Assembly: GCA_963833575.1 (NCBI GenBank)
Contig: CAWHXY010000004.1
Location: 672,001-736,000, forward strand
Length of the DNA stretch: 64,000 nucleotides
Direction: 5' to 3'
Source of the DNA: Candidatus Bathyarchaeota archaeon
Lineage (GTDB): Archaea; Thermoproteota; Bathyarchaeia; Bathyarchaeales; Bathycorpusculaceae
Positions 41,655 through 49,358 of the stretch are shown here, piece after piece (position 1 is the first letter of the stretch; the number at the start of each line of letters is the position of its first letter). A program made the position numbers and the translations under genes. A model generated the notes under the pieces. That model made no database searches, was not told the origin of the DNA, and saw only the letters and a list, made by a program, of their open reading frames with translations.

Positions 41655-43259
41655 CTAACTTTTGTTTATAGACCTTTTTAGAGCGGCAATGACGTTTTGT
41701 TTCCCCATTGCAAGTACATATGGACCTAAACGTGGACCTTGTGGTGCACCCATCAGAATCCGGTACAGAGTTTTGAAAAAGCCGCTGGGTTGTATATTGT
41801 TGCTTTTTGCAGCGTTGAAAATGGCGTTTTGGATTTGGTCAGGTTCGTTTTCAGTTTCCAATTTGATAATGAGTTCAGTTATTGCTTTTTTCTCGACATC
41901 TATCAAGGGTACTTCTGTTTCTTTGATTTCCTCAAAGTCTCTAGTCCAATTCGAGGCATATTCGATGCGCTGCTTCAAGTTAATGTCTAAGGCTTGATTT
42001 TTTTGCAGGTACCCGTAGCTCTGGAGTTTTTCTATTATATAGTCCTCTTGGCAATCTTTTGGAGCCATTTTAACCAGAAATGCCATCAAATTATAAGGCA
42101 CATGAGCATTGGGCTTCGCTGGTGGCTTCATAACGTAGCAGTACTCAAACAAACCCCTGAGTTTGGTGGCTTCTTTCTCGCCTGCCTGTTTCTTGCCAAA
42201 ATAAAGGTCCTCAAGATAATCCAGTTCATTCATGTAAGCTGGAATATCTGATACATCTAGGCTTCTCGTGCCAACAAACCGTTTGAGCATCAACAAAAGA
42301 AGCGATTGTGGAGAACCATACTGGAACCACACCTGCGGAGTGAAAACGTTGCCTGCGGACTTGGAAATTTTCTTTCCTCCTTTATCAAGAAACATCTCGT
42401 ATTTTGCGTGGGATGGAGGCTCGAAACATAGAACTTCCCGGCATATTCGGTCGTTGATTTTTACTGAGTCAGCAATGTCTTTTCCGTAAGCTTCAAATCG
42501 GATGTCAAGCGCTTTCCAGCGGGCGGCGAATTCACCTTTCCAAGTTAATTTTCCTTCACCTTTTTTGATGTCTGCTTGGCCTTCATGTCCACATCCTTGT
42601 ATCAGTTTGCCGCGGATTTCTAGCCCTTCACATTTATAGTGAACTTTATCGGTTTTTGGGTCAAACGAGTAAGCGCGTGTGGTGTAAATGCGTCCGCAAT
42701 TTTCGCAAACTGCAAAATAGGGCAAAACTTCAGTGTAAGTGTCTTGTCCAACTTCTTCTTTTACTATTTGGCCGACTTGTTTGGCGTTAGTGAGAATAGT
42801 TCTAACTTCGTTTAGTATGATTCCTTTTTCGTAGACTTCTTTGGCGGAATAATAACGGTATTCTATGCCGCATTTATCTAAAGACTCAAGTAAAAGTGAG
42901 CTCATGTGTTTGCCGTAGCTTTCATGGCAACCGAACGGGTCAGGAATACTAGAAACTGGAAATCCAAGGTATTTTTCTAAGCCCTCGTTTGAAAGACCTA
43001 CAGGGACTTTGCGTAAGCCATCTTTGTCATCACAGTAGGCAATTAGTTCCGAGTTGATTTTTTGATCGCGGAGGGCAAGGGTAACTGTGTATGAGCGCGC
43101 AGCATCGCCGAGGCTGCCGATATGTGGGAATCCTGAGGCGCCAAGACCCATTTCGGTTCTGATTTTATCTGTGGTTCTACCAAGTGATTGTTCTCTTTCA
43201 ATGACTTTTTTGGCCATCATGTCGTACCATGTGCCGCGTCCGATCGTTTCTTCACTCAT
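41655..43259 (-). CDS. lysS: Class I lysyl-tRNA synthetase
   Basis: SGFPHIGS (HIGH), GKLTWK, GKD, KISKS (KMSKS), GPRLG. Confidence 0.95.
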   Translation of the reverse strand: MSEETIGRGTWYDMMAKKVIEREQSLGRTTDKIRTEMGLGASGFPHIGSLGDAARSYTVTLALRDQKINSELIAYCDDKDGLRKVPVGLSNEGLEKYLGFPVSSIPDPFGCHESYGKHMSSLLLESLDKCGIEYRYYSAKEVYEKGIILNEVRTILTNAKQVGQIVKEEVGQDTYTEVLPYFAVCENCGRIYTTRAYSFDPKTDKVHYKCEGLEIRGKLIQGCGHEGQADIKKGEGKLTWKGEFAARWKALDIRFEAYGKDIADSVKINDRICREVLCFEPPSHAKYEMFLDKGGKKISKSAGNVFTPQVWFQYGSPQSLLLLMLKRFVGTRSLDVSDIPAYMNELDYLEDLYFGKKQAGEKEATKLRGLFEYCYVMKPPAKPNAHVPYNLMAFLVKMAPKDCQEDYIIEKLQSYGYLQKNQALDINLKQRIEYASNWTRDFEEIKETEVPLIDVEKKAITELIIKLETENEPDQIQNAIFNAAKSNNIQPSGFFKTLYRILMGAPQGPRLGPYVLAMGKQNVIAALKRSINKS

Positions 43260-43324
43260 AGCTTTGAGCCTTCAGCCAATTGACTATACATTGGAATAGA
43301 AAAATGTTTAGAGCCAAAAAAAGC

Positions 43325-43669
43325 TCATGGTTTCTTTCTTAGGGCTGAAACGATGGCTATGATGCCAAGAGCAAGCAACAATAAGGCTAACGAGTAAATC
43401 CAGCTGTAGCCAAACAAGAACCATGCAGCACCTAAAGCCATGAGAAGCACCCCCATTTGAACGGTGCTGTATGGCGAGCGTTCGTTCTTATTAGGACCCG
43501 AAGCTCTGATGCCTGCAAGAACTATCATCCACACTCCGAACAGCACAATGATTAACTGTAGAATGTTCCACCAGTTATGAGTTACATTGGCTGGATAGAG
43601 CAGTATTGCTGCTACAATAATGATAAAGAAGACGCCAATAGTTAGCAGTTGTCGTCTACTTTCAGACAT
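43325..43669 (-). CDS. 4-TM membrane protein, LiaI/LiaF-TM-like
   Basis: Two TM hairpins of the form G-hydrophobic...W..hydrophobic-G (WWNILQLIIVLFGVW; WIYSLALLLLALGI). Confidence 0.7.
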   Translation of the reverse strand: MSESRRQLLTIGVFFIIIVAAILLYPANVTHNWWNILQLIIVLFGVWMIVLAGIRASGPNKNERSPYSTVQMGVLLMALGAAWFLFGYSWIYSLALLLLALGIIAIVSALRKKP

Positions 43670-43681
43670 TATTATGTCAAC

Positions 43682-44668
43682 CTACGATATAGTTGCACCG
43701 CATTCAGGGCAGAACTTGGAACCGGCGGGGATTGAGTGTCCGCATTTGGGGCAGTTAATCGTTGCTTGTGAGGGAGGTGTTAGATTGGTTCCGCATTCAG
43801 GGCAGAACTTTGATGTGGCTGGAACGTGCGCGCCGCATTTGGGGCATATTACCAGGGCTGCTGTTGGGGCTTGTGCCTGAACTTGACCAGCTGAATTCAT
43901 AATTTGAGGTATGAGTACCATGCCTGTGCCTAAGCCTGCTCCGCCGCCACCGCCGCCCTGACCTAGAGATGCTGCTGCACTCTTCACCGTTTCCATGCGC
44001 AAGACTGTATCCGCGGGGGTGCTTCCGGTTTTAAGCCAAAATAGCCGTTCACGATACTCAGGCGTGGTGTCGATTCCTTCGAAACGTAAGTCTGTCAACT
44101 CGATACCTAATCGTTTGAAGTAGTCTAAGACTGAGTTTTTAACAATAATAGATGTCTCTTGGAGCCTAGTAAAGACAGTCACCAAGTCATAGTGGGAAAG
44201 TTCCGAAATTATTTTCTCATTCAGGAAACCACGTAGGAAATTGTTAACGTCTTCAGTCGTGTAAGCGTTTTGTCCACCGACGACTTCGTTCACGAACAGC
44301 GAAGCATCTTCGATTTTAAATAAGAATTGCCCAAACACTTTAAGTGGAGCCAACTCGGTGGTTTGTGCACTTGTTCCCCATTTTCCGTTGAAAACTTTAG
44401 TGGCTATGTATAGTACCATCGTTTTAAACGGTTTATTGCTGCCGAACCCTGCTATGCGAGTAAGCAAACTTGTGAGTAAAGGCAGATTCAATGTTGTCAA
44501 TGTGTGTCTGCCGGGACCAAAAACATCGTAGGCTTTGCCGTCCCTGAAGAAAACGGCCATTTCATACTCGTGCACGACGAGTTGGGCGCCCCATGTGATA
44601 TCTTCGTTTGGGTATTTGTAAATTATCGCGTCTGGACCCGCATTTACCCATTCTATTACTTGTGGCAT
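43682..44668 (-). CDS. SPFH/Band-7 domain protein with C-terminal double zinc ribbons (YdjI-like)
   Basis: QLVVHEYEMAVFFRDGK.YDVFGPGRHTL.T.NLP, KWGT; Gly-rich linker; CPKCG...KFCPECG twice. Confidence 0.9.
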   Translation of the reverse strand: MPQVIEWVNAGPDAIIYKYPNEDITWGAQLVVHEYEMAVFFRDGKAYDVFGPGRHTLTTLNLPLLTSLLTRIAGFGSNKPFKTMVLYIATKVFNGKWGTSAQTTELAPLKVFGQFLFKIEDASLFVNEVVGGQNAYTTEDVNNFLRGFLNEKIISELSHYDLVTVFTRLQETSIIVKNSVLDYFKRLGIELTDLRFEGIDTTPEYRERLFWLKTGSTPADTVLRMETVKSAAASLGQGGGGGGAGLGTGMVLIPQIMNSAGQVQAQAPTAALVICPKCGAHVPATSKFCPECGTNLTPPSQATINCPKCGHSIPAGSKFCPECGATIS

Positions 44669-44669
44669 C

Positions 44670-45206
44670 TTAACTCACTCCCATGATAACTTCATTACGT
44701 TGATCAAATGTGTTTTCTAAACTTTCAAGCTTGTCCGTTACATTCTGAACTCTAGTCTTCAAATTTGCAGTTGCTCCGCTGGCTAAATCTGCTTTAAAAG
44801 CGTCAATTTCCGTAGTCAAGGCGTTGATGCCGTCTAAAAGCTTGTTATCGAAAGCAATCATGTTGTCAAGATTTTCCTCTCTGACCTTGACAGCGTCAAA
44901 GAACCCGCTGTACCCATAAGAGGCATGATTAATTTTTTCAACGACACGGTCTATCTTGGCTAACAGGCGATCCATATCTGTCAGAAGATCGAAGTAGCGG
45001 CGGTCAGCTAGCTTCTGCTCAATTTCCCGTAGATCTGTTTTTTCAATTGAAAGCTTGAGATATAGGTGATTCCTGATTAGTCTGTCGCTTTCGCGACGTA
45101 TTTCCTTTTCTTTGTAGCCGCGGAAACCTGGAATGAACGCGGCTATGCGCTCAGAAAGGCGCATTTGACCTTGAACGTTTGGAGTTACATCGTTTTTATC
45201 GCTCAT
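44670..45206 (-). CDS. Conserved-looking alpha-helical/coiled-coil hypothetical protein
   Basis: ERIAAFIPGFRGYKEKEIRRESDRLIR and ASYGYSGFFDAVKV motifs; stop codon 1 nt from the SPFH start. Confidence 0.85.
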   Translation of the reverse strand: MSDKNDVTPNVQGQMRLSERIAAFIPGFRGYKEKEIRRESDRLIRNHLYLKLSIEKTDLREIEQKLADRRYFDLLTDMDRLLAKIDRVVEKINHASYGYSGFFDAVKVREENLDNMIAFDNKLLDGINALTTEIDAFKADLASGATANLKTRVQNVTDKLESLENTFDQRNEVIMGVS

Positions 45207-45282
45207 TTTATCCTATCCGCCTATTTTTATTATCCGTTGATAATAAGAAGTCGCTTTTAAAGTTTGTTCAGGTAAATGAAGC

Positions 45283-46029
45283 TTAGAATCTTGTAGACGG
45301 TATGTCGCCTTTTAAGGCTGTTCCAGCAGTTCCTTCAATTATCAACTGGTATACTTTACCTTTGTATTCGTATTTTATAAACCAAATGGGCGCATGCAAA
45401 TAGACAATCTGCTTTTGGATTACTTCCGTTTTTATCTCGACTATTTTATCCACATCTTGCTGAAGGAGAAACCTATGATGATCTTCAATTTGTTGCTTAG
45501 CCATTTCTAAGGCAGCATCTCGATCGATTTCACTGTTTAAAAGTTTGGCAAACCCTTCAATTTTGCGAAAATCGAATGGAATTTTTCCTTCTAGTGGAAC
45601 GTCGTATTCATGTGTAGGGAACTCTGATGCTTCCCGTGCCAAAACTATCCAGTCATATTCCTTCGAGATTGTGCCCTCTTTAACTAGGGCAGGTGATATG
45701 CGTTCGAATATGCCCTTGTAAGTACTTTTAGCTTCAACGGAAACCACCCAAAACGGCAAATAAACCAATTCTTTTGAATTAACTTTTGACTTTTTAGCAA
45801 GGTCACCTGGTTTTAGAAAACCGCCACTCATCCAGCCATGAATTTGCTTATCGATGCTTGTTAAATCAAATGCGTTCAGGATTAGTGAGTGCTCAAATGT
45901 GAATGCTTGCCCAGTTTCGATTACGGTTGTGAAACCGCAGTATTTGCAGGTGGCAATAAGTTCTCCGGGTTTAAACTCTACTGGAGCGCCGCAATGGCTA
46001 CAACGGATTTCTTGGGCAACCGTGGTCAT
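45283..46029 (-). CDS. Zn-ribbon protein (YdjG-like)
   Basis: CSHCGA...CKYCG N-terminus; VYLPFW and LHAPIWFIKYEYKGK.Y motifs. Confidence 0.8.
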   Translation of the reverse strand: MTTVAQEIRCSHCGAPVEFKPGELIATCKYCGFTTVIETGQAFTFEHSLILNAFDLTSIDKQIHGWMSGGFLKPGDLAKKSKVNSKELVYLPFWVVSVEAKSTYKGIFERISPALVKEGTISKEYDWIVLAREASEFPTHEYDVPLEGKIPFDFRKIEGFAKLLNSEIDRDAALEMAKQQIEDHHRFLLQQDVDKIVEIKTEVIQKQIVYLHAPIWFIKYEYKGKVYQLIIEGTAGTALKGDIPSTRF

Positions 46030-46032
46030 AGT

Positions 46033-47415
46033 TTACTGCACCAAACGTTCACGCTTCAAAATTTCTCGAGCAACGATTACACCCGAAGCTGACGCTTGAA
46101 TCAAACCACGTGTAACACCTGCGCCGTCACCGATGGTGAACATGTTTTGGATTTTTGTCTCTAACGAGTTGGTTAGCTGCAAGTGTGAAGAATAAAATTT
46201 GACTTCAATACCATAAAGCAGGGTATCTCTTGAGTGGACTCCTGGCGCTATCACGTCTAAAGCTTGAAGCATTTCACGGATGTCAGCTAAATAGCGATAG
46301 GGCAAAACGAAACTTAAGTCGCCAGGCGTAGCATTCTTTAGAGTTGGTACAACTACGCTTCTTGCTATACGTTCAGGTGTTGAACGTCGTCCAGAAACCA
46401 AATCCCCTAATCTCTGAACCATTACTCCTCCACTTAAAAGGTTTGAAAGTCTGGCGACGTACTTACCGTAAGCAATAGGCTCTTTGAAAGGCTCTGTAAA
46501 GGAGGTGCTGACTAAAATGGCGAAGTTTGTGTTATCGGTTTTTGTTTCAGCATGACTTCCACCGTTAACTGTTAAAACTCCATCATAAGATTCCGTCGTG
46601 ACTTCCCCATAGGGCGACACACAGAAAGTACGAACTTGATCATCGAACAGACGTGAGAAATAGACAAGTTTTGGTTCATAAAGAACTTTCGTTAGGTTCT
46701 CCATCACTGAAGCTAAAACTTCAACCCTTACACCAATGTCAACCGGGTTGTTTATGGTTTTTAGTCCGCGAACTTGAGCTTCTGTTTGAAGCCATTCTGC
46801 TCCACTTCTGCCAGGTGCAATAATTACATATTTCCCCAGAAATTTTTCGCCGTTAACAGTCTCAATGCCTTGAACGGTATGATTTTCGGTGATAAGCCCT
46901 TTGACATCAGTTTTAGGCATAAATGTGATTTTGCCATTGAGTTCTTTGCGCATTCTTTGGAGAGTTTCTAGGCATTTGTCTGTACCCATATGGCGAACTT
47001 CTTGTTTGATTAGTTTTAAACCAGCAAGTGAAGCTTGACGTTCTATTTCATCTACTTGTTCGTTTTCTCCACCGTAAACCTTGTCGCTAGCCCCGAATTT
47101 GATATAGATGCCATCCACATATTTTACTAGGGCTTGGAGTTCTTTGGTTGAAACGTACTGGTTTAGCCAACCGCCAACTTCAGTTGAAAGGGTTAGTTTT
47201 CCGTCACTGTAAGCGCCTGCTCCACCCCAGCCTGAAAGAACCGAGCATGGTTCACAATGAACGCATTCGAATCCTCTGCTTGATGGGCATTTGCGTTTAT
47301 CAATATCTGGTCCTCTGTCTACAATGAGGACATTGAGGTTTGTTTTTTCTGTTAATTCTAACGCTGAGAAGATGCCTGCTGGACCTGCACCCACGATTAT
47401 GACGTCGTATTTCAT
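46033..47415 (-). CDS. FAD-dependent oxidoreductase (COG2509-type)
   Basis: YDVIIVGAGPAG, Cys cluster C..ECVHCEPC, GWGGAGAYSDGKL, RTFC, EVKFYS, GDGAGVTRG. Confidence 0.9.
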   Translation of the reverse strand: MKYDVIIVGAGPAGIFSALELTEKTNLNVLIVDRGPDIDKRKCPSSRGFECVHCEPCSVLSGWGGAGAYSDGKLTLSTEVGGWLNQYVSTKELQALVKYVDGIYIKFGASDKVYGGENEQVDEIERQASLAGLKLIKQEVRHMGTDKCLETLQRMRKELNGKITFMPKTDVKGLITENHTVQGIETVNGEKFLGKYVIIAPGRSGAEWLQTEAQVRGLKTINNPVDIGVRVEVLASVMENLTKVLYEPKLVYFSRLFDDQVRTFCVSPYGEVTTESYDGVLTVNGGSHAETKTDNTNFAILVSTSFTEPFKEPIAYGKYVARLSNLLSGGVMVQRLGDLVSGRRSTPERIARSVVVPTLKNATPGDLSFVLPYRYLADIREMLQALDVIAPGVHSRDTLLYGIEVKFYSSHLQLTNSLETKIQNMFTIGDGAGVTRGLIQASASGVIVAREILKRERLVQ

Positions 47416-47514
47416 AGGTACTGCCTTCTTTGGAACCCAGAGTTAGATGCATCAGGTAACATATATTTGTTGGTGCAGGGAAGAAAATTCTGGTTTTCAG
47501 CATTAGCATATGTA

Positions 47515-47536
47515 TTCTTAGGATATATCTAAAGAA
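47515..47536. promoter_or_regulatory. Imperfect palindrome, candidate PadR operator
   Basis: TTCTT-AG-GATATATC-TA-AAGAA directly upstream of TTTATAAT (about 47539-46). Confidence 0.5.
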
Positions 47537-47577
47537 CATTTATAATCGTAAATTTGTAGATAGGAACGAAGAAGAGC

Positions 47578-48057
47578 ATGTCGAAAAAAGAACCTGAAAA
47601 CATTGATGAATTTATTTCGGATTTTTCACGGTTTTACATACTTACCATACTTTATGAAGGACCAACGCATGGTTACAGCATTATTAGCAGGTTCAAAAAA
47701 AGAGTCAAAAAAGAAGTGAGCCCAAGCTTAGTTTATCCGTTCCTGCAGCAACTGGAGGAAAAAGGCTTAGTTACACATACCGAGGAGCCGGTGGGCGAAA
47801 AAGAAAGAAAAGTTTTTGAATTAACGCTTCCTGGAAGAGAATTATGCACTGATCTGTTCAAACGCTTCGCTGAACTGGTGTCAATCGCTATTGAACCAAG
47901 CCTCTACATCTGTGCCCATTGTGGATGTAAAGTCTTTGAAGGCGCTTACAGAGAAACCATCGACGGTAAAGAGACAGCCTTCTGCTGCATACATTGTGCT
48001 AACTCTTACAAGGAATCAAAGAAGACAACAAAAAAACTAAGCGACACGACAAAATAA
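47578..48057 (+). CDS. PadR-family regulator with a C-terminal TRASH-like Cys-rich domain
   Basis: HGYSI...SPSLVYPFLQQLEEKGLV...ERKVFELT..G; CAHCGC...AFCCIHCA. Confidence 0.9.
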   Translation: MSKKEPENIDEFISDFSRFYILTILYEGPTHGYSIISRFKKRVKKEVSPSLVYPFLQQLEEKGLVTHTEEPVGEKERKVFELTLPGRELCTDLFKRFAELVSIAIEPSLYICAHCGCKVFEGAYRETIDGKETAFCCIHCANSYKESKKTTKKLSDTTK

Positions 48058-48116
48058 GGTGAATGAGCTAATATTTTCAAAAAGTAAGTGAAAACAAAAA
48101 GTTTGTTAGATATTAA

Positions 48117-48395
48117 CTAGTCTTTTATGGCTTCTATAAAACTCATGACATTCCAAAGTTTAACTCGCGTGTAAGCGGGCATATTTGGGTCTTGAAGAAT
48201 TTCGTCAAGAAGCGAAACTGCGTTTGAGGCACGTACTGCTGGCGTGAACTCGCCGCTTTGTAGAGTATTCATGGCGTCTTTTGCAGAGCGTCTAATATTT
48301 CGTGGTGTTGTACTGTCCTCAGAAACCTCTGCAAGCACCACTAACGCTTGCTGAATTTTGGCTTCATATTCTTCAGCTTTTTTCTTTCGAACCAT
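48117..48395 (-). CDS. UPF0147-family protein
   Basis: D.TTPRNIRR...VRASNA...DPNMP.YTR..LW. Confidence 0.9.
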   Translation of the reverse strand: MVRKKKAEEYEAKIQQALVVLAEVSEDSTTPRNIRRSAKDAMNTLQSGEFTPAVRASNAVSLLDEILQDPNMPAYTRVKLWNVMSFIEAIKD

Positions 48396-48459: not shown

Positions 48460-48837
48460 TTGGGGTTCTTATTGCAGCAAAAAAAAGATAACACATCAAT
48501 TAAGCGAATGGCTGATTTGCTAATGCAAGGCGCCACTTTAACCGACATATCATGCCCAGCGTGCAATTCGCCGCTTTTCAGACTGCAAGATGGCACGTTG
48601 TGGTGTGCAAATGATGAAAAGAAAGTTGTGATAGTTAAAGAAGGGGAAGAACCAATTAAACCCTCAGCCACCGGCTCAGCATATGATAAACTTGAAGCAA
48701 CTTTGATGAATAAAGTTCAAGATTTGCAAGATAAAATCGAAAAAACAGAAAATGTGGATGAGTTACAAAAGCTTACCAATGCACTTTCGGAATTGCTGAA
48801 TAGTCTTGACAAAATACAGAAAATGAAAAAGTCCTGA
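48460..48837 (+). CDS. UPF0148 / Sjogren autoantigen-1-like Zn-finger protein
   Basis: MADLLMQGATL...CPACNSPLF...C, followed by a coiled coil. Confidence 0.88.
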   Translation: MGFLLQQKKDNTSIKRMADLLMQGATLTDISCPACNSPLFRLQDGTLWCANDEKKVVIVKEGEEPIKPSATGSAYDKLEATLMNKVQDLQDKIEKTENVDELQKLTNALSELLNSLDKIQKMKKS

Positions 48838-48848
48838 GCAGAAATAGT

Positions 48849-49358
48849 TTGCCTTTTGGATTTTACGAAAATTTTCCTTCGCACATTCACAGAGTTGAGA
48901 GTTTCGCTTCAGGTTTTTCTAACGTGCAACTTCAACAAAAACTAATTCAAATTTTTTATGAAATAAATCGAAAAGAATTCAGTTTTGAAGAAGTCACTAA
49001 CCCAACAATTCCAGAATGCAAAGTAATCTTTGAGTTTGGATTGGCTGACGCTGAAGGTTTCAATTATATTGACGATGAAGAAGCAAAAATAGCACTTAAT
49101 TCAATAGTAAACGAACATTTGCATATTATCGATTTCTTCTGCGGAATACGATATTATAAAGTCAATACGGAAAAGAAAACAGCGTTAAAGTTTGATTATT
49201 ATCTTCTTCGATTCGTGTTCAGCAGAGGAACCATTCAAATTCAAATTCATCACGAAAGAGGCCCAAGATACATTTCCCCAGAAGATCTAACACAGTTCAT
49301 TTTTACCCAAACAAACCAAGGATCAAACAAAAAAGCCTTAAGAAAAACAAACCCTTAG
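48849..49358 (+). CDS. Hypothetical protein
   Basis: 169-aa ORF co-oriented with and 11 nt downstream of UPF0148. Confidence 0.7.
   Translation: MPFGFYENFPSHIHRVESFASGFSNVQLQQKLIQIFYEINRKEFSFEEVTNPTIPECKVIFEFGLADAEGFNYIDDEEAKIALNSIVNEHLHIIDFFCGIRYYKVNTEKKTALKFDYYLLRFVFSRGTIQIQIHHERGPRYISPEDLTQFIFTQTNQGSNKKALRKTNP

Follow-up and report, generated by a model that had tools for sequence, protein, structure and literature searches.

A window of 64,000 nucleotides (nt) from Candidatus Bathyarchaeota archaeon (contig CAWHXY010000004.1, positions 672,001 to 736,000) was analyzed, in which six genes at positions 43325..48057 encode a flavin adenine dinucleotide (FAD)-dependent oxidoreductase, a Zn-ribbon protein (ZNR), a helical protein of 178 amino acids (aa) (HEL), an SPFH protein with a double zinc ribbon, a small protein with four transmembrane (TM) segments (TM4) and a PadR-family regulator. 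The analysis revealed that the usual partner of the SPFH protein of the Band_7_1 type (PF13421) in the sampled genomes is HEL, an unstudied four-helix protein common to archaea and bacteria, and that the genes of the two proteins are adjacent, co-oriented and co-distributed in Thermoproteota and in a bacterial phylum. The locus is read, with a probability of about 0.62, as a variant of the SPFH membrane-scaffold module of the YdjI/SamI type that lacks PspA and has HEL and the SPFH protein as its invariant two-gene core. To our knowledge, YdjI/SamI is the only Band_7_1 SPFH protein that has been studied, and its known partners, PspA, SamG and SamH, all come from one Bacillus operon.

Pairing of the HEL and SPFH Genes across Genomes

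A HEL profile was searched against 301 Thermoproteota genomes and 301 genomes from the bacterial phylum of G301, the bacterial loci being reached via the bacterial HEL family member P0142, which led to a locus of a Bacillota metagenome-assembled genome (MAG). HEL was detected in 155 of the Thermoproteota genomes, covering 67 of 122 genera, and in 93 of the bacterial genomes. From the 154 other HEL-positive archaeal genomes, 60 loci of about 14.5 kb each were chosen for family spread and long contigs; open reading frames (ORFs) in the fetched loci were obtained with a first-start caller and were searched with profiles iterated from the window proteins. An SPFH ORF was observed in all 60 archaeal HEL loci. 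In 51 of them the gene immediately downstream of HEL, on the same strand and at a gap of -53 to +55 nt, is an SPFH ORF of ≥250 aa, and in eight others the SPFH ORF lies 0.3 to 4.4 kb from HEL, with only a 54-aa fragment being present in one (L079). This last locus, from genome G139, harbors an intact HEL gene together with fragments of the SPFH gene (54 aa) and of Zn-ribbon genes (62 and 74 aa), and might represent a module in decay, or else the ORF calls may have created the fragmentation. The bacterial loci gave a similar picture, with the SPFH gene directly downstream of HEL in 36 of 42 and 0.5 to 3.8 kb away in the other six.

The same pairing was observed when whole genomes were counted. 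Among the 301 Thermoproteota genomes, HEL and PF13421 were found together in 144, HEL only in 11, PF13421 only in one (at a contig edge) and neither in 145. Three of the 11 genomes with HEL only have an SPFH ORF by the window-derived profile (L055, L081 and L091), so thresholds account for part of the mismatch between HEL and PF13421. The bacterial sample contains 77 genomes with strong HEL matches (E below 1e-8), 76 of which also carry PF13421, the HEL gene of the exception lying at a contig edge; 17 bacterial PF13421 genomes are without strong HEL, and 16 of these score weakly (E of 3.1e-30 or weaker). These bacterial tallies take in three unpublished genomes (G428, G533 and G513), without which there are 75 genomes with strong HEL, 74 of them with PF13421, in a sample of n = 298.

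The HEL and SPFH trees were also compared for 87 pairs of adjacent genes. Their patristic distances are correlated, with r of 0.82 overall, 0.80 in archaea and 0.71 in bacteria, and each tree separates archaea from bacteria cleanly. The correlation fits the inheritance of HEL and SPFH as a pair, though any two vertically inherited genes would correlate too.

The other neighbors of the pair are variable in the bacterial loci, and include DUF5693, threonyl-tRNA synthetase, an AI-2E transporter, Dus and a THUMP methyltransferase. PspA, the TPM protein, the archaeal Zn-ribbon family and the TM4 family were all absent from the neighbors in these loci (n = 42). In 19 of the 42, the co-oriented gene immediately before HEL encodes a protein of about 630 to 760 aa with 6 to 10 TM segments; it is PF18949 (DUF5693) in all nine that were scanned, and often follows threonyl-tRNA synthetase. 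Loci such as L095, L098, L099, L103, L106, L119 and L123 carry this upstream multi-TM gene, and there the SPFH gene is followed by a gene for a single-TM protein of about 350 to 400 aa, without any Pfam family, and by an AI-2E transporter gene.

The SPFH Protein

Pfam was scanned with 11 proteins of the window at E ≤ 0.1, and TM segments were called by a hydropathy scan, which revealed four segments in TM4 and none in HEL, the SPFH protein or ZNR. The 328-aa protein contains, in this order, a Band_7_1 domain (residues 17 to 206, 108.3 bits against a cut-off of 24), a Gly-rich low-complexity linker and two C-terminal CxxC...CxxC zinc ribbons, and has no TM segment. The C-terminus carries CPKC/CPEC twice in the translation, forming two Zn_Ribbon_1 stretches. 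Its profile matched stomatin in the PDB at 1.5e-8, with flotillin and QmcA also being matched. Because of the PF13421 match (5.5e-31), the double Zn ribbon, the Gly-rich linker and the lack of a TM segment, the protein is, as judged from its predicted architecture, a YdjI/SamI-type SPFH protein, and the YdjI likeness put forward in a first-pass annotation of this DNA holds, with PF13421 above its cut-off. The accessible parts of two papers describe SamI/YdjI with the same architecture, that is, a soluble SPFH domain, a low-complexity linker and a C-terminal zinc finger (PMC13713150, PMC8581546). Band_7_1 was also matched in the control genomes of Bacillus subtilis and Sulfolobus acidocaldarius.

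The bacterial SPFH ORFs are of the same kind, with Band_7_1 and zinc ribbons recognized by Pfam in the 20 of 20 loci scanned, except that SHOCT replaces the ribbons in L114 and L126, and only one of the 42 ORFs has a TM segment. A second, short SPFH-like ORF of 199 to 222 aa was observed on the opposite strand beside the HEL–SPFH pair in six Thermoproteota loci (L041, L046, L052, L053, L066 and L083).

The HEL Family and Its Conserved Pole

HEL matched the NCBIfam model NF047596 (LIMLP_15305 family, Leptospira) with an E of 1e-19 and 71.1 bits over residues 38 to 174 of 178, which is below the 210-bit cut-off of the model and makes HEL a distant homologue outside the equivalog. This narrow, Leptospira-based model found matches in none of 14 control genomes, B. 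subtilis among them. LIMLP_15305 is mentioned only as a gene flanking a small RNA in the accessible part of the paper that names it (PMC7567364). The family is large: an exhaustive HMMER search, counted by representatives of 50% clusters, gave 1170 members at E ≤ 1e-3, 570 of them reaching E ≤ 1e-10, and nearly all are 165 to 185 aa in length. Near-identical homologues, at 85 to 93% identity, are labelled 'Candidatus Bathyarchaeia archaeon', the members with a named source include Bacillota and Chloroflexota MAGs, and the look-alikes in the ESM Atlas come from Ignavibacteriota, Chloroflexota and Methanobacteriota, all recorded as 'hypothetical protein' without a Pfam family.

An alignment of 87 members revealed seven invariant residues (P26, Y31, R38, D41, R45, D120 and R170) and two motifs, PG..GY..KE.RR..D...R and A.YGY.GFFD. 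The AlphaFold2 (AF2) model built from this alignment, with a predicted local distance difference test (pLDDT) value of 87.4 and a predicted template-modelling score (pTM) of 0.82, has a short helix at residues 17 to 24 and then four helices of 22 to 35 residues each, at 34 to 68, 72 to 93, 110 to 143 and 149 to 175. Conservation is concentrated at one end of the bundle, where 25 of 72 columns are conserved at ≥70%, compared with 1 of 52 at the far end, the poles being assigned from the up-down topology of the bundle and not from model coordinates. At the conserved pole, helices 1 and 3 begin, helix 4 ends and helices 2 and 3 are joined by their loop; the pole is rich in Tyr, Phe, Gly and Arg. 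A PDB sequence search with HEL returned only rows at chance level (E ≥ 0.35), and Foldseek of the model against the PDB returned nothing at E ≤ 1e-3. The VIA structure comparison found generic helical bundles, namely 4u5a_A (Z 10.6, root-mean-square deviation (rmsd) 4.1, 141 aligned), 4m70_A (Z 10.5) and 6e6a_B (Z 10.1), all at Z values under about 13, which are uninformative for helical proteins.

Some variants of HEL were also observed. No longer fused forms were found at E ≤ 1e-5 in a dedicated search, which is weak evidence. P0178 has a Zn ribbon and a low-complexity linker N-terminal to HEL, and P0166, P0186, P0232 and others, of 316 to 435 aa, have long Pro/Gly/Ser-rich tails, with P0232 coming from Chloroflexota. 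A short sub-type of 157 to 158 aa (profile positions 7 to 137), followed by an SPFH ORF of 291 to 311 aa, occurs in L054, L055 and L080, where a conserved gene of about 140 aa comes after the short SPFH gene and the genomes are single contigs of 1.8 to 2.1 Mb. This divergent short HEL–SPFH sub-type may be that of Sulfolobales.

HEL Compared with PspA and ESCRT-III Proteins

The first-pass annotation had proposed that the helical protein is a very divergent or non-orthologous PspA/ESCRT-III-like membrane polymer, standing in the place of PspA in pspA-ydjGHI, and the position of HEL agrees with this, since its neighbors are a YdjI-type SPFH protein and YdjG-like proteins, a setting that in Bacillus belongs to PspA. 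The claim that the system is without PspA was borne out, as the search of this genome, which is 94% complete, gave no PF04012 match over the cut-off (best E 0.007), yet just 2 of the 301 Thermoproteota genomes have such a match. As PspA is this rare across the sample, with or without HEL, its absence is a trait of the phylum sample and not of the HEL carriers. In the bacterial sample, 19 of the 35 genomes with PspA (out of 301) are also HEL-positive, with PspA on other contigs, and the two proteins are therefore not alternatives. No HEL was found in the 16 PspA loci fetched from the bacterial sample. HEL and PspA as alternative partners of SPFH, with SPFH lying beside PspA in three of these 16 loci, was an idea that we dropped, since the PF13421 matches at E ≤ 1e-10 do not include the three genomes in question.

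Direct comparison gave little likeness between the families. HEL had no Pfam match to PspA_IM30 or Snf7 at E ≤ 0.1, and hhalign of the 87 HEL sequences with 25 PspA sequences, which are the genes picked up by PF04012 in the searched genomes, gave a probability of 0.64% with an E of 0.089. PspA and ESCRT-III chains are absent from the 50 listed VIA rows for HEL, an absence that does not exclude either. The model is a compact up-down bundle and not a long hairpin, and conservation is located at one pole and not along the helices. The N-terminal segment of HEL, MRLSERIAAFI, is moderately amphipathic (Eisenberg hydrophobic moment, muH, of 0.63 over 11 residues), so the amphipathic segment named in the first-pass annotation was recovered, though it makes only about three helical turns. 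Three of the 15 long HEL members examined (P0210, P0223 and P0231) have a C-terminal DUF4178 fusion, which favors a PspA-like role in that the accessible part of one paper gives DUF4178 as a domain of CesT/Tir-PspA operons (PMC11237479).

The genome moreover has four CdvB-type ESCRT-III genes of its own, on contigs C6 and C7, away from the locus. The four proteins matched the NCBIfam CdvB1/B2 or CdvB models with E values of 8.1e-34 to 1.6e-58, below the equivalog cut-offs, and one of them matched the solved CdvB2 at 1.1e-36. Two of these paralogues lie about 1.4 kb apart on C6, and the 297-aa paralogue is extended at its C-terminus by a part that faintly matches a winged-helix-like domain (Csa3 helix-turn-helix, E 0.006). 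Overall, both the sequence profiles and the conservation of a single pole argue against a PspA-like polymer, as far as sequences can tell, and we consider such a role of HEL highly improbable.

Proposed Model and Its Alternatives

In the reading that we prefer, HEL and the SPFH protein would act as one complex. HEL would dock through its single conserved pole, comprising PG..GY..KE.RR..D...R, A.YGY.GFFD, D120 and R170, and would serve the SPFH oligomer beneath the membrane as an adaptor or regulator instead of polymerising as PspA does. ZNR-type proteins, which usually have two C-terminal TM helices in Thermoproteota, and TM4 would most probably anchor the two soluble proteins at the membrane, a role modelled on that of SamG and SamH for SamI in Bacillus subtilis.

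Complex prediction was carried out with residues 1 to 260 of the SPFH protein and HEL, each with its own custom alignment. The pair scored 0.46 (runs of 0.00, 0.46 and 0.48), while the best of three controls scored 0.00, giving a verdict of weak support. In the benchmark, which is roughly valid here given the custom alignments, 116 of 157 solved complexes attained the mark, as did 2 of 215 mismatched pairs; scores of ≤0.60 included only 18 of the 157 solved complexes and both of the mismatches that passed. Contact agreement among the runs was at least 0%, and the partner pLDDT was at least 79. Given the high prior from adjacency and co-distribution, the prediction lends mild support to a HEL–SPFH complex and is not proof of it.

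The same pole could be used differently if HEL were mainly a membrane tether, its YGY.GFF, R37, R38 and R45 entering the lipid head-group layer and thereby holding the TM-less SPFH protein. The richness of the pole in Tyr, Phe, Gly and Arg would suit this, HEL and the SPFH protein are both without TM segments (apart from the one exception among 42 bacterial SPFH ORFs), and a tether would explain why the bacterial loci need neither ZNR nor TM4 as an anchor. Nevertheless, the idea is pure inference from sequence and no lipid-binding fold was recognized; the 6–10-TM protein upstream of HEL in 19 of the 42 bacterial loci could be the anchor, and membrane binding could also reside in the zinc ribbons or in the SPFH domain. 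We hold a tethering role of HEL to be unlikely.

Several points weigh against the reading of HEL and SPFH as the core of a YdjI/SamI-type module. What adjacency and co-distribution establish is a functional link, and they do not demonstrate physical binding or its direction; the complex prediction passed weakly, with one of three runs at 0.00 and no interface reported. The likeness of ZNR to YdjG is drawn from architecture and from fold matches at Z of 5.4 to 6.2. The window ZNR has no TM segment, which makes its role as an anchor here doubtful, and ZNR and TM4 are missing from the bacterial loci, so membrane tethering would be solved differently there. In addition, first-start ORF calls make the gap sizes approximate, related genomes are not independent samples, and no experiment on any member was found in the literature.

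Accessory Proteins ZNR and TM4

The ZNR family was found in 34 of the 60 archaeal loci and in none of the 42 bacterial loci, and its cysteines C10, C13, C28 and C31 do not vary among 36 members. The homologues of most other Thermoproteota measure 310 to 340 aa, end in one or two TM helices and are frequently encoded as tandem pairs, with some reaching about 490 aa, and the Bathyarchaeia family of the window has a form of 247 to 250 aa without TM. The AF2 model of ZNR (pLDDT 89.7, pTM 0.78) has a ribbon followed by two repeats of a helix plus a long beta-hairpin, which may be PepSY-like. The best VIA match was the C-terminal domain of YpeB (5boi_A, Z 6.2, rmsd 2.6, 67 aligned), followed by a PepSY-like lipoprotein (4exr_A, Z 6.1) and YpmB (2gu3_A, Z 5.4), with only seven chains at Z 5 or above; Z values under 8 may reflect a common arrangement. 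Foldseek of the ZNR model against the PDB gave nothing at E ≤ 1e-3, and the PDB sequence search gave chance-level rows only (E ≥ 0.35). PF08271 (TF_Zn_Ribbon) matched 7 of the 36 family members, with a best value of 2.7e-7, and the window ZNR itself had weak matches to other Zn-ribbon models, not to PF08271. The name YdjG does not appear among the 120 matches listed for the ZNR profile search.

YdjG is described, in the accessible text of one paper, as having zinc ribbons, then a YpeB-related domain and a TM segment (PMC11237479), and an excerpt of another gives its ribbon as Pfam TF_Zn_Ribbon (PMC9239133). The predicted architecture of ZNR plausibly agrees with that of YdjG/SamG. A YdjG-like protein had been claimed for this locus; the ribbon, the weak YpeB/PepSY fold matches and the TM-bearing homologues sustain the claim in part, and the TM segment is missing from the protein of the window.

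The TM4 family occurs in 32 of the 60 archaeal loci and in none of the 42 bacterial ones. The hydropathy segments of the window protein are located at residues 4, 32, 68 and 87. The family is poorly conserved, with a mean column identity of 27%, and its members (n = 30) have no consistent Pfam match of any kind. LiaI/LiaF families of Pfam were not matched by the window protein at E ≤ 0.1 or by any of the 30 family members at E ≤ 0.01, and the earlier view of TM4 as a LiaI/LiaF-like anchor is accordingly not supported.

The FAD Enzyme, the PadR Regulator and Putative Signals

The five minus-strand genes and PadR might also be taken as one regulated stress system, in which PadR senses redox or metal and the FAD enzyme works in the membrane response. 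The single orientation and the short gaps between the five genes would suit such a system, as would the gene order with PadR kept in the same-genus locus L035 and the position of the FAD gene before ZNR in six loci from other genomes of the window's family (L035 to L040). However, PadR was found in just 2 of the 60 archaeal loci, and among the printed gene orders only in L035; the FAD enzyme was found in 8 of the 60, one more of these being seen in L059, and neither occurs in the 42 bacterial loci. The 76-nt spacer between ZNR and HEL also contains an A/T-rich TATA-like stretch, CTTTAAAAG, located some 50 nt ahead of the start of HEL (recognized by eye), which suggests a separate transcription of HEL, SPFH and TM4 from a possible internal promoter. 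A/T-rich TATA-like boxes were likewise seen by eye ahead of both genes in the 162-nt divergent spacer, and the oligo-T runs at the end of the operon are likely to be a putative archaeal terminator.

The regulator has a clear PadR domain (61.3 bits against a cut-off of 27), and its tail carries the cysteine pattern CxxC ... CCxxC in the translation. This tail resembles TRASH modules only below their cut-offs, as the matches to the TRASH-like Ta0938 (6.5e-4, 20.5 bits) and TRASH_HVO_1752_C (2.1e-3, 18.6 bits) are under 27 bits. The best PDB sequence match of the FAD enzyme, which we take to be COG2509-like, is 3nlc_A 'Uncharacterized protein VP0956' of Vibrio (2.2e-26). On this evidence one stress system of all six genes appears quite improbable, and the FAD oxidoreductase and PadR are, as gene order and profiles indicate, lineage-specific neighbors lying outside the module. 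The first-pass annotation had counted both among the parts of the system: for PadR the domain, the Cys-rich tail and the divergent orientation stand and its membership does not, and for the FAD enzyme the membership was given up. The neighborhood survey that it called for returned HEL, SPFH, ZNR and TM4 together elsewhere, and mostly without FAD and PadR.

Layout of the Locus and Its Surroundings

The features of the locus are listed in Table 1. The six ORFs match the coordinates of the first-pass annotation exactly, including the common orientation of five genes and the minus-strand gaps of 3, 76, 1 and 12 nt. No YdjH was recognizable, as had been stated before, since none of the 11 window proteins scanned had a TPM match at E ≤ 0.1.

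Table 1. Positions of the genes and putative signals of the locus and its flanks in the window, together with the CdvB genes found elsewhere in the same genome.
Feature	Position	Strand	Length	Evidence and remarks
FAD-dependent oxidoreductase	46033-47415	-	460 aa	Pyr_redox_2 7.1e-12, FAD-depend_C 4.5e-9, GIDA C-terminal part 2.5e-10 (Pfam)
Zn-ribbon protein (ZNR)	45283-46029	-	248 aa	best Pfam matches are weak Zn-ribbon matches, 1.8e-3
Helical protein (HEL)	44670-45206	-	178 aa	no Pfam family; AF2 four-helix bundle; core part
YdjI/SamI-type SPFH protein (by predicted architecture)	43682-44668	-	328 aa	Band_7_1 (PF13421) 5.5e-31, Band_7 6.5e-16, DZR 1.7e-12; core part
Small 4-TM protein (TM4)	43325-43669	-	114 aa	hydropathy; no Pfam family; frequent archaeal accessory, candidate membrane anchor
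PadR-family regulator with Cys-rich tail	47578-48057	+	159 aa	PadR 8.6e-17; divergent
ZNR–HEL spacer	45207-45282	-	76 nt	TATA-like CTTTAAAAG; possible internal promoter (by eye)
Oligo-T runs, two	43300-43322	-		just after TM4 stop; likely archaeal terminator (by eye)
Class I lysyl-tRNA synthetase, flank	41655-43259			Pfam
UPF0147 protein, flank	48117-48395			Pfam
CdvB paralogues	L144:1246-1929, L145:1252-1911, L146:1267-1920, L147:961-1854	-		own genome, outside the window

Beyond the UPF0147 gene, an ORF at 48460-48837 on the plus strand encodes a protein of 125 aa that combines an Auto_anti-p27 zinc-ribbon domain (3.1e-12) with a coiled half at the C-terminus, and is followed at 48849-49358, on the same strand, by an ORF of 169 aa without a Pfam family. 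PADLOC matched none of the six locus proteins, and the PHROGs matches of the locus proteins cover the Zn-ribbon part only, so that a defence or phage reading of the locus has no support from either database. None of the sequencing runs compared holds half or more of the words of the stretch, the best DNA run holding 0.21. Contigs of a wetland metatranscriptome (X19), mostly less than 95% alike, cover 28 of the 30 bins of 43300-48100; they are relatives in an RNA library that may also contain DNA and are not proof of transcription, and the uncovered parts mean nothing.

Comparison with Known Systems and Implications

The system closest in content is pspA-ydjGHI (pspA-samGHI) of Bacillus subtilis. 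As the accessible parts of the respective papers describe it, both have an SPFH protein of PF13421 that is soluble and in which a low-complexity linker leads to a C-terminal zinc finger (PMC8581546, PMC13713150), and both have a partner with an N-terminal cytoplasmic Zn ribbon and a YpeB-like domain, the latter only a possible one in the archaeal protein; this partner carries TM helices in most Thermoproteota homologues (PMC9239133, PMC11237479). In both, the TM-less SPFH protein is expected to depend on separate membrane proteins. Unlike the Bacillus operon, the locus lacks PspA and the TPM-domain protein YdjH/SamH, and it has in addition the invariant HEL, a ZNR without TM and a 4-TM protein of no known family. 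A second likeness is to the archaeal ESCRT ('Meth_adaptin') loci, in which, according to the accessible text, archaeal SPFH proteins with zinc ribbons were tied to YdjI-PspA by the authors and an ancient link between SPFH and ESCRT-III was proposed (PMC10936438). Those loci have ESCRT and adaptin-like genes beside SPFH, whereas the neighbor here is HEL and the CdvB genes are on other contigs. The CesT/Tir-PspA operons share with some HEL members the fused DUF4178, a PSP-associated domain in the part of the source available (PMC11237479), but none of the genes of those operons (DUF4178, DUF350 and spermine-synthase-like) is present in the window, and the link is indirect. A description of the HEL–SPFH pair was not found in the literature searched, though Tables S2–S4 or the web application of PMC11237479, a source available in part, may list the family or its neighborhood.

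A broader view, which we regard as rather improbable, would make HEL a near-universal co-factor of YdjI-type SPFH scaffolds, coupling them through its pole to membrane remodelling, for instance by one of the four CdvB paralogues, much as YdjI recruits PspA, or itself the effector at damaged tetraether membranes; the PspA-SamGHI system of Bacillus would then be a derived branch of a much older HEL–SPFH module common to archaea and bacteria.

About half of the sampled Thermoproteota and roughly one in four genomes of one bacterial phylum have HEL, which almost never occurs without an SPFH gene. The HEL–SPFH pair is thus a testable handle on the assembly or control of TM-less SPFH scaffolds, and it bears on membrane organisation or repair in archaea without PspA. 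Since Band_7_1 is found in Sulfolobus acidocaldarius, a genetically tractable archaeon may carry the module.

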